DNA of 38,809 nt from Candidatus Omnitrophota bacterium (GCA_037442605.1 JBBIPY010000002.1:1-38809); one strand, 5' to 3'. Counted from the stretch's first letter, positions 28,485 through 34,279 are shown. Numbers and translations: made by a program. Notes: generated by a model not told the origin, from the sequence alone.

Positions 28485-29621
28485 TTATTTTAGCAATCCC
28501 TGAATTTCTGAAGGCAGTTGAGAATACAGCTCCGGATTTATTCTTATCGCCTCCTTAAAATCGGCTACCGCTTTTCCCATTTTATCCAGCACAAAATAAA
28601 CCCAGCCCCGATTAAACCAAAACCCGGCGTCATCGGGATTTAAGTCAATCGCCCTATCAAAGTAATACAGCGCCTCATCGTATAAATTCAACTCGGTCTT
28701 GGCAAGCCCGCATTGGTAAAAGACATTAGCATTATAGGGATTTAAAACAATTGCTTTATCAAAATCAGAAATCGCCTCCCCATATAAACCCAGGACAACC
28801 TTTGCAATCCCGCGATTGTAAAAGCCATCTGGATTATCAGGCTCCAAATCAATCGCTCTATCAAAATCTTGCCGTGCCTTTTCGTATAGGCCTAACTTTC
28901 CCTTGATAATTCCGTTATTTATATATCTTGAGGCAATTATCCCCTGCTCATCAATTCGCTGCACAATTTCACAAGCCTTGGCTATGCTGCTTCCTGCCTT
29001 CAGGCGCCAGATAACCCCTTCTTTTTCAAAATCCTCCTCCCAGACAAAAATCTTGCTTTTATAATAATCCGCATCAGCCACCGACAAATCCAGAATCACA
29101 TAACCGCTATCCAACTTGATTAAATTGGCTGTATGCGTCCTGTAGCGGTCTAACCAAACCCGCATAACCTCTACCTCCAGCCCCAATGTTTTCCCTAAAA
29201 CAAAAACAATTTGGGCATAGCCAAGACAAAGGGCTTTTTTATCTCTGAGCACTTCTGGTAAATCAAAATATAATACTTCCTTTCCTTCCTGCCAGTTATA
29301 CAATTCTATTCTCTGTTTTATCATCCCCGCTAAGACAGAAATCCTTTCCTCAACAGGTAACCCCCTCAGTTCCTCCAGGTCAGGGAAAATCTCTCCTATC
29401 AAAGAAATAACCTCCTCCGCTTCCTGTTCATATCCGATACTTATAAGCGTCTGACGCAACGAGATAGAAACATTGTTTACATCTCTCACCCTCCTCGCCC
29501 CAAGGGACATATCACAACTGAGGGAATAAATACCGCTGTCTCCACCCCCGGGGTGGACGGCAAGGGCCGTAACTATCCCCAGCAGAACCAGAATTGTTAT
29601 TCTAAAGTATTTCATCTTCAA
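28485..29621 (-). CDS. HPGGGDSG-leader protein: transglutaminase-like Cys-His-Asp core plus four TPR repeats
   Basis: Track start is TTG; ATG at 29615. Leader ..ALAVHPGGGDSGIYSLSCDMSLGARRVR. KKALCLGYAQ...RTHTANL...VILDLS resembles a TGase-like core. C-terminal TPRs (AI.DFD.AI.L.P). Confidence 0.75.
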   Translation of the reverse strand: MKMKYFRITILVLLGIVTALAVHPGGGDSGIYSLSCDMSLGARRVRDVNNVSISLRQTLISIGYEQEAEEVISLIGEIFPDLEELRGLPVEERISVLAGMIKQRIELYNWQEGKEVLYFDLPEVLRDKKALCLGYAQIVFVLGKTLGLEVEVMRVWLDRYRTHTANLIKLDSGYVILDLSVADADYYKSKIFVWEEDFEKEGVIWRLKAGSSIAKACEIVQRIDEQGIIASRYINNGIIKGKLGLYEKARQDFDRAIDLEPDNPDGFYNRGIAKVVLGLYGEAISDFDKAIVLNPYNANVFYQCGLAKTELNLYDEALYYFDRAIDLNPDDAGFWFNRGWVYFVLDKMGKAVADFKEAIRINPELYSQLPSEIQGLLK

Positions 29622-29664
29622 CTTAATTTTATTCCTCTTTCAAAATAGGGATGTGTCCCTAATT

Positions 29665-30858
29665 TCAATAAAAAATCCTCACCAGAGTTTTGAATATCTC
29701 TTCTGAATCCAAGCCCGGAATTTCCAGGCCAAAATGATGCCCACCTGGTTTTCTAACAGCTCTATATATTCTATTTAATGCCGGGGAAGAAATATCCAGA
29801 CAAACCTTATTTTCCCATTCCACCCGGTCCAGTCTCAAAGAGATAACTTCGCCGCTAAAACGTCTAATATCCCAGCGTATGCTTGCCTGGCCGCTCCTTG
29901 TTAGCACATCATGTAGCTCAAGGAAAATCTCAGAACAACCCCTGTTTTTAGGGCTAAAGTAATGTAAATGTTTTGTTGCGCTGATTTCTCTCAACTCATT
30001 TTTCTTATAAGCGGAAATGATATCTAATAAGAGCAATAAATCACGCTGCGCCTGCAGAATCACTTCTTGAAAACCAGGCGAAGTGCTGACCGCGCAAGAA
30101 ACAATCAAGTCATTTAACTGCTGAAAAATTACTCTCACTTGTTCATCTAGGTCATTCAAATATTCGCCGTACCTACGCAGGTCGCCTTCGGAAACGCGCC
30201 GGGCTTCTGTGCCGTAAATCCGATAGCATTCCTCAACCATTTGATTTATGCGCAGATAATTGGCGATAAAGGTAGAGGACTGGGCAATACGGATTAGCCG
30301 GTTCAGGCCTGGTCCGTCAGTCACGATTTCCCTGAAAAGCCCGCCTGCCTTTTCCAGAAATTCATCTCTTCCGGGAACATCCTTTAATTCTCTCCGTAAA
30401 TTTAAAAATACCCAATATGGCATAACCGTCCTCTGCGCCCCTAATTTTCCTAAAAATTCATCGGATAATTCATTAAGTTTCCCCGTATCAAATACGCTAA
30501 ATTCTCCCTGCCAGGCGATATATCCCTCCTTAATCGCCAACTCCAAGTCCAACGCCAGCCAGTAAAGTGCCTGGGGACCACGGTAGTATAGAGGTATAGC
30601 ATTCAAACAGACCAGATTTCTCACGCCACTCTCTGGAGAATAAACTAATATATTGTCCACTTCGGGGGTCCTCGGAATCAGCTCCTCGCCTCTTTCTATC
30701 ATTCCGATTAGGCTTTGGTAGTTAAAGCCGGCTGCCGAGACTTTCGAGCGCCGTATTGCCTGGCATGTAAAGGAGCCAAACATCCGGGGGTAAAAACACA
30801 ACCCGCTTACAGTCAATACAGTTGCCAATAAAATTAACATTTTTAATTTTTTATCCAT
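29665..30858 (-). CDS. Anchor-RR-motif protein, unknown function
   Basis: Leader MLILLATVLTVSGL...CQAIRRSK. 397 aa with no recognised domain. Confidence 0.65.
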   Translation of the reverse strand: MDKKLKMLILLATVLTVSGLCFYPRMFGSFTCQAIRRSKVSAAGFNYQSLIGMIERGEELIPRTPEVDNILVYSPESGVRNLVCLNAIPLYYRGPQALYWLALDLELAIKEGYIAWQGEFSVFDTGKLNELSDEFLGKLGAQRTVMPYWVFLNLRRELKDVPGRDEFLEKAGGLFREIVTDGPGLNRLIRIAQSSTFIANYLRINQMVEECYRIYGTEARRVSEGDLRRYGEYLNDLDEQVRVIFQQLNDLIVSCAVSTSPGFQEVILQAQRDLLLLLDIISAYKKNELREISATKHLHYFSPKNRGCSEIFLELHDVLTRSGQASIRWDIRRFSGEVISLRLDRVEWENKVCLDISSPALNRIYRAVRKPGGHHFGLEIPGLDSEEIFKTLVRIFY

Positions 30859-30904
30859 AACTTTTGCGCCGTTTGCGCCGGAAGAAATCAGGCATCTTTA
30901 TTCA

Positions 30905-32717: not shown

Positions 32718-34214
32718 CTAATTTTTCAGGTCTCTGTAAGAGCCATCTTTCAGGTCAATCGCTACCAGGCATCCTTTTCCCTCATCCGCCACATAAATAA
32801 TGTCTCCTTCTTGGACCATGTCCTGAGGGTCAATTAAGCTGTCGGGAGCAAGGTCTCTGTAAGAGCCATTTTTCAGGTCAATCGCTACCAAGCATTTTTT
32901 TCCCCAATCCGCCACATACATAATGTTTCCGTCTTGGACCATAGCCCGAGGGCTAATTAAGCTGCGCCGGGCAAGGTCTCTATAAGAGCCGTCTTTCAGG
33001 TTAATCGCTACCAGGCATCCTTTTCTCCCATCCGCCACATAAATAATACCTCCCTTTTGGACCATAGCGTAAGGGTCAACTAAGCTGTCGGGAGCAAGGT
33101 ATTTTATCTGCAGGGTGCGTGCCTCCAATTGCTGATATAGAGGGGACTGTTTTGCTTTAGTCATTATCTGCCCTATAAAATAAATAAGGTTATTCACTGT
33201 GGGGCTTCCGCCGTCGTCTTGCGAAGAGATGGCGTTAGTGTCAATTTCCCGGCTGAATAATTGGATAAAAGCCTCTAACTTTGAGCGGTTCTCCCTTACA
33301 ACCCCGCTATCCAGTCCCCAGCCGGACAGATAGCTCTCAAAACCTGCGCTCAGAATATCAACTGTCTGGATGTCGCTGAATCCGTTCTTAAGCGCGCTGT
33401 AGGTTATGGTAACCGCCCATTCTGAAAGCGCCTGGCCCGTATGGAAATATAGCCAATCATAGTGGCTAATCTCAAAAACATGGGCAAAGTCCCTTAGTCC
33501 TGCCAGGCTCATATTGGAATAGCTGAGGTTTTCTCTAAGGTTTTCTATGCCTCCTATGGGGGTATAAGTCCACAGCCATTGCCTGCCTGAATTCCTCTCG
33601 TGAGTCAGGGGAGAAAGCGACTTATGCAAGTAGCCCGCCTGAAGCATCTGTGTAAACTGGGTTATGGAACGCATAGCGCATTCTTTCATCTGTTGGGGGT
33701 CTTTTATATCCTCGGGGTAGATAAAGTATTCCTCGGGGGCAATGTAGCTTATATATTTGCCGCAGCTATCTACTTCCGCAGGGGCATGGGAGAGGGCCTT
33801 GCCTTGATATTCAAAGATGTAGCTGCCGTCTGCGCCTTTTACCAACAAGGGAGCGATTTTTACGCCTCTTTCTCTTAATTCCTGCATCATTTGCGCTTCC
33901 TGTTTTAATTCGGAAAGGGATTCTCCTTTTCTTAAGAACTTAACCGCCTGGACCCATCCGTTTCCCAAGGGGATAACTGCGGTGCGGGAATACCAGGCAG
34001 AGGCAGGCAGCCTTTCCAGACGCCTTTCTAATGCCTCAGTTGATAATATAGCGGCGGAAGGAATCCCTGCCTCATTTATCCCCCTCGCCCTCCTCGTCCC
34101 CATGGATGCTTCACAACTGAGGGAATAGAAACCGCTATCTCCACCCCCGGGGTGGACGCTAAGGGCCCCCGCCATCCCCAGCAGAACCAGAATTTTTATT
34201 CTAAGATTTTTCAT
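32718..34214 (-). CDS. HPGGGDSG-leader protein: possible kinase-like N-domain plus three 41-aa beta-propeller-type repeats
   Basis: Leader MKNLRIKILVLLGMAGALSVHPGGGDSGFYSLSCEASMGTRRARG. AVKFLRK...QEAQMMQEL...GYLHKS...GLRDFAH motif order. C-terminal (D/S)P.(A/D)MVQ.G.I.YVAD..K.CLVAI.LK.GSYRDL x3. Confidence 0.75.
   Translation of the reverse strand: MKNLRIKILVLLGMAGALSVHPGGGDSGFYSLSCEASMGTRRARGINEAGIPSAAILSTEALERRLERLPASAWYSRTAVIPLGNGWVQAVKFLRKGESLSELKQEAQMMQELRERGVKIAPLLVKGADGSYIFEYQGKALSHAPAEVDSCGKYISYIAPEEYFIYPEDIKDPQQMKECAMRSITQFTQMLQAGYLHKSLSPLTHERNSGRQWLWTYTPIGGIENLRENLSYSNMSLAGLRDFAHVFEISHYDWLYFHTGQALSEWAVTITYSALKNGFSDIQTVDILSAGFESYLSGWGLDSGVVRENRSKLEAFIQLFSREIDTNAISSQDDGGSPTVNNLIYFIGQIMTKAKQSPLYQQLEARTLQIKYLAPDSLVDPYAMVQKGGIIYVADGRKGCLVAINLKDGSYRDLARRSLISPRAMVQDGNIMYVADWGKKCLVAIDLKNGSYRDLAPDSLIDPQDMVQEGDIIYVADEGKGCLVAIDLKDGSYRDLKN
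32728..33096. repeat. Three tandem 123-bp units inside the CDS
   Basis: Unit starts (aggtctct.taagagcc) at 32728, 32851 and 32974. High DNA identity between units. Confidence 0.9.
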
Positions 34215-34233
34215 GCTTCACCTGTTCTCAAAA

Positions 34234-34270
34234 GGGGTCAGGCACTTTTTTAAAAAAGGGGTCTGACCCC
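34234..34270. terminator. Hairpin ggggtcag...ctgacccc downstream of gene 34280..35191
   Basis: Same sequence as 31848..31884. TTTT follows on both strands. Confidence 0.55.
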
Positions 34271-34279
34271 TTTTCACTT

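Follow-up and report, generated by a model that had tools for sequence, protein, structure and literature searches.

Introduction

Proteins that bacteria export through the Sec pathway begin with a signal peptide, which consists of a basic n-region, a hydrophobic core, a helix breaker and small residues at positions -3 and -1 of the site cut by signal peptidase I (SPase I) (PMC9360617). We describe here a class of N-terminal leaders in which a segment of this kind is followed by an invariant arginine pair (RR), found in a 38,809-nucleotide stretch of DNA from a Candidatus Omnitrophota bacterium (GCA_037442605.1, JBBIPY010000002.1:1-38809; hereafter the window) and in related genomes. Ordinary bacterial Sec substrates avoid basic residues in the early mature region, and in E. 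coli Sec export is hindered when the mature chain starts with basic residues. Short motifs that follow a signal peptide are known from the PEXEL, TEXEL and RxLR proteins of eukaryotic parasites and from the lipoprotein export signal (LES) of Bacteroidota, and polymorphic toxins join a constant N-terminus to variable C-termini. The Omnitrophota are widespread, uncultured nanobacteria. Most of them have been proposed to be predators or parasites (PMC10066038).

A preliminary description of the window had drawn attention to three genes, called g1, g2 and g3 in this report, whose products would share a leader of ~45 residues containing HPGGGDSG, and had read this leader as a trafficking-type N-terminus placed on variable bodies in the manner of polymorphic effector or toxin families. 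The comparisons reported below support the logic of a common N-terminus on variable bodies, with the correction that the conserved element is the RR-type leader and not HPGGGDSG.

An invariant arginine pair marks the leaders of a hypervariable island

Between ilvB-ilvN-ilvC and leuA-aroE-prepilin peptidase-aroC, the window holds a hypervariable island of ~10 kb with eight genes on the same strand. The conserved unit at the start of these genes, and of island-type genes in related metagenome-assembled genomes (MAGs), was wider than the leader first described: a positive n-region, a hydrophobic core and an AxA-like site, and then RR-[VIL]-[KR]-[DE]. We tabulated 31 such leaders, and two more were seen later, which brings the number to 33. 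The arginine pair was invariant in all 31, at residue 23-44; taking its first arginine as +1, V, I or L stood at +3 in 23 leaders, K or R at +4 in 28 and D or E at +5 in 19, and position -1 was Ala in 20. The window leaders, from 25394 to 35191, read AFA/RRVKD, ALA/RRMKE, AWA/RRVKT, LGA/RRVRD, QAI/RRSKV, FGA/RRARG, MGT/RRARG and YIT/RRIRD (the slash precedes the pair). Examples from related MAGs, where leaders were seen in the neighbourhoods L003/L009, L004 and L005 and in a third MAG (L006), are STEA/RRVKD, TLEA/RRIKD, SVEA/RRLLF, ASA/RRVKG, VYA/RRIKE, SEA/RRSKD, VFA/RRTKY, ALA/RRAKK and SYA/RRVRV.

The motif was present in 30 of 33 island-type genes (8/8 in the window, 22/25 elsewhere) versus 1 of 41 other genes (Fisher p = 3e-16); one more carrier outside the islands came to light after this count, and the tally for island-type genes of two related Omnitrophota MAGs stood at 24 of 27. 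Its arginines were spelled by many codon pairs, including CGG CGG, CGC AGA, AGA CGG, AGG AGG and CGT AGA, and this free variation indicates that selection acts on the protein. A Shine-Dalgarno-like AGGAGG acting at the RNA level was considered as the origin of the pair and rejected, AGG AGG being confined to the window's three leaders, contig L002 (described below) and one other gene. Alignment, gene counts and codon usage together demonstrate the wider RR motif, its enrichment and selection on it at the level of protein.

No match to the leaders was obtained in Pfam, NCBIfam (signal models searched to E <= 10), PADLOC or Rfam, and the literature on Omnitrophota and signal peptides, which was covered incompletely, held no description of such an RR motif. 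The RR leader class is apparently undescribed, and together with its cassette-like island would be of more interest than the HPGGGDSG variant. It is not strictly confined to the island, since a protein with two PG_binding_1 domains outside it (2279..2923, minus strand) contains, from Met40, a hydrophobic core and HFV/RRLRE. The OmpA/LysM protein at 417-1367 has an ordinary signal peptide (VLA/F), and ..REARREEEKK nine residues later.

The leaders have features of Sec signal peptides

In all 31 leaders the n-region contained 1-5 K/R; the uncharged stretch measured 9-27 residues, and 12-20 in most of them. The (-3,-1) rule was satisfied directly before RR in 22 leaders, the chance rate being about one in six by a rough estimate, and a Pro or Gly was present at -4 to -9 in 17. 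The N-terminal flank was the more positive one in 24 of the 31, for which the charge-difference rule predicts an N-in, C-out topology. An N-terminus of similar type, GFA/KRWEF, was found in a LysM-YkuD protein. Both this protein and the PG_binding_1 protein with HFV/RRLRE contain domains that must be periplasmic, and this type of N-terminus thus fits export.

The three HPGGGDSG leaders stand on unrelated bodies

The three open reading frames (ORFs) were present on the minus strand where the preliminary description had placed them. By ORF call and TPR family matches, g1 (28485..29621; 378 residues) encodes a leader, a transglutaminase (TGase)-like core and TPR repeats; the ORF called as g2 (30905..31816; 303 residues) encodes a leader and a body of no identified family, and g3 (32718..34214; 498 residues) a leader, a kinase-like domain and YWTD/NHL-type propeller repeats. 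The leader-coding parts, also on the minus strand, extend over 29484..29621 in g1 (through RRVR, with the RR codons at 29490-29495), 31685..31816 in g2 (through RRAR, 31691-31696) and 34083..34214 in g3 (through RRAR, 34089-34094).

The first ~46 residues of the three proteins aligned without internal gaps, and the common start that had been reported, MK..RI.ILVLLG...VHPGGGDSG.YS.SC..S.G.RR.R, was recovered with 29 of 48 columns invariant in the alignment of g1, g2 and g3. Alignment of the first 135 nucleotides bore out the similarity of the leader DNA, with identities of 87% (g1/g2), 81% (g1/g3) and 86% (g2/g3); in the following 300 nucleotides identity was ~60% by forced global alignment, which is the background level. 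A repeat search returned the leaders as one family, D1 (29482-29640, 31683-31841 and 34081-34239), and a degenerate pattern coding for HPGGGDSG had exactly 3 matches in the window versus 0.01 expected by chance.

With the leaders masked, there were zero BLASTP matches among the three bodies, which are unrelated as had been claimed. Four paralogues or orthologues of g1 from Omnitrophota align with it, and PF01841 is on record for its paralogue P0025; a PDB sequence search with g1 gave a single kind of result, a non-significant transglutaminase-like match. For g2 there was no match in Pfam, NCBIfam or PADLOC and no BLASTP relative among 36 island proteins. Residues 60-263 of g3 matched the NCBIfam model NF033874 ('SidJ-related pseudokinase') at 67.4 bits (E 1.1e-18), below the curated cut-off of 300, which indicates a putative relation in fold and not membership of the family. 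In the PDB sequence search g3 gave YWTD-propeller matches on its repeats only, and no match to SidJ. An AlphaFold2 model of g3, based on a three-sequence alignment, had a mean predicted local distance difference test (pLDDT) score of 57.6 with residues 1-168 below 50, and was too poor for fold comparison or for a view of how the leader folds.

The C-terminus of g3 is encoded (32728-33100) by three tandem repeats of ~123-126 nucleotides, 85-89% identical, which correspond to YWTD/NHL-like propeller blades. In a sister MAG (GCA_964555025.1, contig L001), which is 99.65% identical to the window, g3 is one repeat unit shorter (456 versus 498 residues, window positions 32851-32977 being extra). Blade number therefore varies between near-identical strains.

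The only relatives of g3 (54-56% identical), P0021 and P0022 of the 'Candidatus Omnitrophica' MAG GCA_023819145.1, are without HPGGGDSG and start ...SWQPAFA/RRVHI and ...ITLLI/RRVKF; these orthologues and the relatives of g1 all come from 'Candidatus Omnitrophica/Omnitrophota' MAGs. The cysteine of the three leaders is indeed not part of a lipobox: S-[LF]-S stands directly before it, it follows D/S/G residues and it lies ~13 residues past the hydrophobic core. Directly after that core, g1, g2 and g3 have the classic sites ALA/V, AFA/V and ALS/V. A true lipobox, LLSGC, occurs elsewhere in the window, in gene 1378..1851.

The HPGGGDSG variant was found only at this locus

A profile built from the leaders of g1, g2 and g3 (self-score ~110 bits) was searched exhaustively against 1.84 billion (1.84e9) protein cluster representatives and reached only this locus, that is, g2 and the g3 of the sister MAG. 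The ten other matches (P0011-P0020) were rejected as spurious; of the nine inspected (all but P0014), seven are translated CRISPR arrays and two (P0012 and P0013) are Ig-like repeat proteins. The preliminary description had itself named such an outcome as speaking against its reading, and the HPGGGDSG..C leader as such is not a family-wide signal. The CRISPR 'proteins' (P0011 and P0015-P0020) stand in public protein collections, and in them FYSLSCETYSGT, FLFAVVRDVQRN and VSIRCRARRTAE recur with ~10-12 variable residues between them; by our own back-translation, these are the three reading frames of one CRISPR repeat of ~37 nucleotides. Their matches to the profile rest on a chance heptapeptide, FYSLSCE, summed over many repeats.

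DNA-level scans with the leader yielded nothing in one genome per GTDB species or in JGI metagenome contigs, and with the TGase-domain alignment neither GTDB genomes nor JGI metagenomes yielded a confirmed relative. Evidently, the clade is not represented in the GTDB and JGI collections that were scanned. A search of a word-indexed set of 5.8 billion proteins with the leader profile also returned nothing, and carries little weight because it missed the window's own proteins as well. When compared with five homologous leaders of the TGase family, HPGGGDSG..C was seen to be an insert of 15-20 residues between the hydrophobic core and the RR motif, the place at which other leaders carry different inserts (SHSCPGNLEVSLGA/RR and ENSDNGGINLGA/RR). 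In g1, g2 and g3 about 18-20 residues, VHPGGGDSG.YS.SC..S.G, separate that core from RR.

Leaders and whole genes are exchanged at repeated 5' modules

We compared the window with the sister MAG and with Logan contigs from run SRR11582140, which are 98.4% identical to the window and contain the g1 orthologue (P0002 on contig L002). In the Logan strain, g1 has a different and shorter leader, MKMKNIKILLSLGITAVVLLSSQPAEA/RRARD, and the match to the window resumes exactly at the ARR codons. The g3 cassette (32725..34227, minus strand; ribosome-binding site (RBS) plus coding sequence, 1503 nucleotides), which is found in the window and the sister MAG, is missing from this strain. Contig L007 corresponds to window positions 35873-34228 over its nucleotides 1-1646 and to 32724-31907 over 1651-2467, so that the cassette is cleanly absent and the upstream hairpin is joined almost directly to sequence that in the window comes after g3. 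The g1 leader has thus been swapped, and the g3 cassette gained or lost, from strain to strain.

Two kinds of repeated DNA were found ahead of the leaders. Module A of g1 (29622..29665, minus strand; repeat family D4) consists of a GGGACACATCCC hairpin, an AGAGGA RBS and a TTGAAGATG start. A second copy, 93% identical to that of g1, is found at 32600..32724 (minus strand) together with a leader stub of 26 codons, MKMKNLRMKIIRLVCAGITIDEFLSL followed by a stop; this segment lies just downstream of g3, directly adjoins the end of vapC and was found in the Logan strain as well. Module B of g2 (31817..31888, minus strand; repeat family D3) is made up of a terminator-like hairpin AAAAGGGGTCAGACCCCTTTT, a GACCCCTTTTGA repeat and the RBS GAACAGGGGAAGC, and module B of g3 (34215..34274, minus strand; also D3) is 100% identical to it over 49 nucleotides. 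These nucleotides, 31840-31888 and 34226-34274, span the RBS and the AAAAGGGGTCAGACCCCTTTT hairpin, and the upstream identity of g2 and g3 that had been noted before is thus exact. The proposal that the shared 5' module is a substrate for recombination is supported by the swap of the g1 leader, the gain or loss of the g3 cassette and the stub, which is preceded by an upstream module of its own. The portable 5' modules are therefore of two kinds, A in g1, the stub and L002, and B in g2 and g3, and it is there that leaders and whole genes are exchanged.

The leader copies of g1, g2 and g3 differ from one another by 10-14 non-synonymous versus 2-3 synonymous codon changes. Such an excess of non-synonymous changes argues for recently copied DNA rather than long purifying selection on the peptide, and it points to the HPGGGDSG leader being a young local variant spread by copying of a portable 5' module.

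A 17-nucleotide palindrome, TCCACCCC-G-GGGGTGGA, codes for (V)HPGGG(D) in g1 (29541..29557), g2 (31742-31758) and g3 (34140-34156), with 0 mismatches at the three sites and 0.05 matches expected by chance. The intergenic sequence 27476-27543, upstream of gene 26733..27467, has two direct repeats of 29 nucleotides (97% identical, 39 nucleotides apart), both of which hold the hairpin TTCCACC-GCGTA-GGTGGAA, whose stem is that of the HPGGG-coding palindrome. These hairpins and the palindrome may form a small family of elements resembling repetitive extragenic palindromes (REP). A further hairpin, (A)AAAGGGGTC(A/T)GACCCCTTTT, was located at 35232-35244, 34258-34270, 31872-31884 and 2340-2352 (8 strand-matches versus 0.44 expected), which places it downstream of ilvC, upstream of g3 and of g2, and once inside the annotated ORF 2279..3040. 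It looks like the standard bidirectional terminator of this genome, and the same hairpin bounds the g3 cassette on the left. A toxin-antitoxin pair, vapB (31969-32220) and vapC with a PIN domain (32201-32605), was identified by Pfam and NCBIfam matches on the plus strand between the stub and g2. The 3' end of vapBC overlaps the 26-codon stub by 6 nucleotides, at the same place as in the Logan strain, and vapBC may have taken the place of the body of an earlier gene with a leader.

Gene content and evolution of the island

The five other genes of the island are all on the minus strand. Gene 25394..26731, with its start codon taken as in L001, has the canonical leader ..APDAFA/RRVKD and an HTH_3/HTH_31 domain, and gene 26733..27467 has the leader ..SGDALA/RRMKE, likewise canonical, which is SYA/RRVRV in the orthologue of the NC818 MAG. 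Bodies of no identified family are encoded by 27567..28382 (..NIAWA/RRVKT), 29665..30858 (a diverged, Cys-containing leader, ..SGLCFYPRMFGSFTCQAI/RRSKV) and 34280..35191 (..YIT/RRIRD). The placement of the island between the ilv genes and leuA-aroE-prepilin peptidase-aroC was also found in GCA_023819145.1, where the island measures at least 19 kb, and in GCA_050252475.1 the island abuts leuA. Between the window and GCA_023819145.1, ilvC is 88% identical, island orthologues are 40-57% identical, and several island genes of the window have no counterpart; as far as these comparisons go, the island bodies are evolving fast.

At least 20 bodies unrelated by BLASTP carry an RR leader. They include TGase plus TPR, SidJ-like plus propeller, PD-(D/E)XK-like, staphylococcal-nuclease-like, PrmA-like, PRK-like, FeoA, HTH_3 and radical S-adenosylmethionine (radical SAM) proteins. 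The radical SAM enzyme is encoded beside leuA in two MAGs (L006 1657-2604 and L009 13565-14476), with the leaders AWG/RRVKE and ALA/RRAKK on bodies that are 73% identical; it has CxxxCxxC and an N-terminal box YGPVSSWRLG, and in the window this place is taken by the HTH protein.

At 21134..21880, at a distance of 3.5 kb from the island, a type IV prepilin peptidase (A24) is encoded, and GCA_023819145.1 (L009 17067-17882) shares this synteny; as the leaders are without a prepilin cleavage motif, we propose no link between peptidase and leaders. A reading of the locus as a defence island was rejected, PADLOC giving generic HTH and TPR matches only. The stretch of lowest GC in the window, 16070-17442 (36% versus ~45%), contains an N6/N4 DNA methyltransferase (16597..17442) and, adjacent to it, a family-less ORF of 176 residues, and is probably a small restriction-modification insertion.

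Discussion

The explanation that we favour, at a probability of roughly 0.55, is that the RR leaders are a Sec-type export signal with a post-cleavage RR motif, carried by a fast-evolving, effector-like repertoire, and that HPGGGDSG is a local variant spread by recombination. We infer from the leader sequences Sec export, cleavage before RR, a function for RR and an effector role. Each island gene would specify a Sec-type signal peptide (n-region, hydrophobic core, small residues at -3 and -1, then RR), SPase I would cut just before the arginine pair, and the proteins would be exported. The basic RR-x-K at or near the new N-terminus might then serve as a second address or retention signal; as candidate roles, it may direct a further step of sorting or retention, be recognised by a second protease or bind to an anionic surface. 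In g1, g2 and g3 the best predicted SPase site is ALA, AFA or ALS before VHP, and cleavage there would leave the insert as an N-terminal extension of ~20 residues ahead of RR. The variant would have come to stand on three neighbours through copying or exchange, by recombination, of a module of hairpin, RBS and leader; it would be shared because a portable 5' module was copied, and not because a trafficking domain was independently conserved. Given the many cytoplasm-type enzymes among the cargo and the proposed predatory or parasitic lifestyle, a secreted effector repertoire is the most economical reading. A more specific version, in which an undescribed, lineage-specific export or host-targeting signal (a Sec peptide cut at AxA so that RR-[VIL]-[KR]-[DE] is presented) marks the effectors of predatory or parasitic Omnitrophota and is kept in a cassette-like island between ilvC and leuA where hairpin, RBS and leader are swapped between genes and strains, would be a bacterial counterpart of the PEXEL/RxLR logic and is put forward tentatively.

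Several points count against the explanation that we favour. Since basic residues hinder Sec export in E. coli, one would not expect a Sec substrate that is cleaved to have an invariant RR at +1/+2. Our statements on cleavage, on export and on topology are predictions from sequence. Several cargos are of a kind that is typically cytoplasmic, namely radical SAM (CxxxCxxC), a PrmA-like methyltransferase, a P-loop kinase and HTH proteins; a Sec-exported radical SAM enzyme would need an Fe-S cluster acquired outside the cytoplasm of the producer, which is awkward for any Sec model. No secretion machinery or dedicated protease adjoins the island, and carriers of the motif came from no more than three to four related genomes (ilvC 88% identical). 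With regard to recombination, the g1 tract is ~8% diverged from that of g2 (by eye) versus a strain divergence of ~1.6%, the former exceeding the latter, and the leader swap in g1 may have run in either direction.

The main competing explanation is that the leader is an uncleaved membrane anchor, in which RR-x-K fixes or arrests the topology and the enzymes are tethered to the inner membrane, either at its periplasmic face (a signal anchor) or, if the block of charge prevents translocation, at its cytoplasmic face. The classical positive-inside determinant consists of basic residues directly behind a hydrophobic segment (PMC9360617), the uncharged stretch has 16-20 residues in many leaders, and many of the cargos (radical SAM, PrmA, PRK, HTH) are enzymes of cytoplasmic type. 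The charges on the other side of the core do not agree with this: a short N-tail as basic as that of most leaders, with 1-5 K/R and the more positive flank in 24/31, should not be translocated, and a C-in topology is thus unlikely. An anchor also has no need of the Ala at -1, the small or aliphatic residue at -3 and the Pro or Gly upstream, for which there is strong enrichment immediately ahead of RR, and the PG-binding and LysM-YkuD proteins that start in this way have to be on the periplasmic side. We give the anchor something over one chance in five, clearly behind Sec-type export with cleavage before RR.

The other alternatives concern the HPGGGDSG variant. In the first, HPGGGDSG..C..RRxR would serve a polymorphic effector or toxin family as its dedicated signal for trafficking or processing, its Gly-rich motif and Cys being read by a specific partner. 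This is suggested by the invariance of VHPGGGDSG and the Cys in three copies on unrelated bodies, and by the recurrence of Cys-containing inserts before the arginine pair (FSFSSHSCPGNLEVSLGA/RR, SGLCFYPRMFGSFTCQAI/RR, NSDNGGINLGA/RR). Against it stand the zero further carriers among the 1.84e9 representatives, GTDB genomes and JGI contigs, the mostly non-synonymous differences among the copies, the plain leaders of the g3 orthologues, a g1 orthologue in a 98.4%-identical strain that does without the HPGGGDSG leader, and the coincidence of the invariant core with a DNA palindrome; no adjoining processing or secretion gene and no known trafficking domain was found. We consider a dedicated signal improbable. 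That palindrome raises the question of whether the selected feature is a nucleic acid, a palindromic REP-like element that was inserted into a tolerant c-region and then copied, with HPGGGD as a by-product and a hairpin that might serve recombination or RNA stability. The 17 nucleotides are invariant in three copies with variable codons on either side, the intergenic stretch 27484-27539 has two hairpins whose stem (TCCACC..GGTGGA) is that of the palindrome, other G/C hairpins bound island genes, and the Logan contigs break at the repeated leaders. However, RNA folds of the leaders were no more stable than those of shuffled sequences (z = -0.2 to -1.7), the intergenic hairpin fits the palindrome at 14/17 only (~0.05 matches expected by chance), there was no Rfam family match anywhere in the window, and the insert is in frame and stop-free in all copies; selection on the nucleic acid is only marginally more credible than a dedicated peptide signal. 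An assembly or binning artefact, with the leader repeat arising from chimeric joining of reads in a MAG, would be in keeping with short-read contigs that break inside leaders (L008 ends at 31731 and 29610) or at modules (L002 and L007). It is nonetheless negligible as an explanation: the whole locus is 99.65% identical in two independent NCBI assemblies, the independent Logan contig L008 matches 29610-31731 (the g2 body, gene 29665 and into the g1 leader) at 100%, and the copies of g1, g2 and g3 differ mutually at 17-25 positions, which makes them distinct loci and not one collapsed repeat.

The view from which this work set out was about half right, in that the joining of one leader to varying cargo and the recombination at the 5' end were upheld, and HPGGGDSG as the signal and the hallmarks of polymorphic toxins were not. 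If the RR motif marks exported proteins, it provides a short tag readable in sequence, from which the secreted or effector repertoire could be listed from genomes alone, and it would imply a sorting step that breaks the textbook avoidance of basic residues just after Sec cleavage. If RR is only a charge cluster of a membrane anchor, what remains is a lineage-specific signal-anchor habit with local gene conversion, of modest interest. The locus is also a clean natural example of leader swapping and of gain or loss of a whole-gene cassette between strains that are 98.4% identical.

Comparison with known systems

With Sec/SPase I signal peptides, most of the 31 leaders have in common the positive n-region, the hydrophobic core, the helix breaker and the small residues at -3 and -1. 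They differ in that RR occupies +1/+2 in 31/31 and K/R +4 in 28/31, so that the early mature region is not poor in basic residues, and in that RR marks a specific class of genes and not the ordinary lipoprotein or the OmpA-like protein of the same window. Substrates of the twin-arginine translocation (Tat) pathway likewise have an invariant Arg pair in the N-terminal targeting region, and some of the cargos here (radical SAM) are cofactor enzymes. The S/T-R-R-x-F-L-K motif of Tat, however, precedes the core, whereas the RR of our leaders follows it, which excludes Tat; there is no hydrophobic segment after RR, and conservation across TGase-family paralogues begins within ~10 residues of it. 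A lipoprotein signal was rejected because the Cys context of g1, g2 and g3 is not L-[A/S]-[G/A]-C (definition in PMC9360617), and a type IV prepilin leader because, by inspection, none of the 31 has G/[FM]xxxE before the core.

The PEXEL (RxLxE/Q/D) of Plasmodium, the TEXEL (RRLxx) of Toxoplasma and the RxLR of oomycetes are, together with the LES, the closest functional analogues. Like the RR leaders, these motifs come with a signal peptide, are short and contain Arg, and they stand on many unrelated proteins that evolve fast and whose genes lie in variable clusters; the Omnitrophota are a phylum for which predation or parasitism has been proposed. RRLKD and RRLKN, both found among the leaders, literally fit RxLx[EQD]-like patterns. 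Those systems are eukaryotic, though, and their motif lies 15-30 residues downstream, whereas that of the RR leaders is at the predicted signal-peptidase site; moreover, no protease of the plasmepsin V/ASP5 type is known for the Omnitrophota case, and delivery to a host is an analogy only. The LES of Bacteroidota surface lipoproteins is also a short charged motif directly after the cleavage site that decides the destination, but it is acidic and stands behind a lipidated Cys, whereas the RR motif is basic and has no lipobox.

Polymorphic toxins (Rhs, CDI, LXG, MafB) share with the island a constant N-terminus, variable C-termini, orphan or stub modules and recombination at the junction. The constant part is here a leader of 25-45 residues instead of a large trafficking domain, and the variable parts are whole multi-domain proteins instead of toxin tips of ~100-200 residues. 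No Rhs, LXG, PT-type or filamentous haemagglutinin-like domain was found with Pfam, NCBIfam or PADLOC, and no immunity gene: the downstream neighbours are further leader-bearing genes of 245-445 residues or the leader stub, and apart from vapBC, which lies on the opposite strand, there are no small genes. Integron cassettes, finally, are single promoter-less genes that are bounded by hairpin repeats and vary between strains, as is the g3 cassette, but the boundary hairpins here are terminator-like (AAAAGGGG..CCCCTTTT) rather than attC, no formal attC search being made, and a scan of 40 window ORFs gave no integrase. Homologous recombination between the repeated modules is sufficient to explain the changes that we observed.

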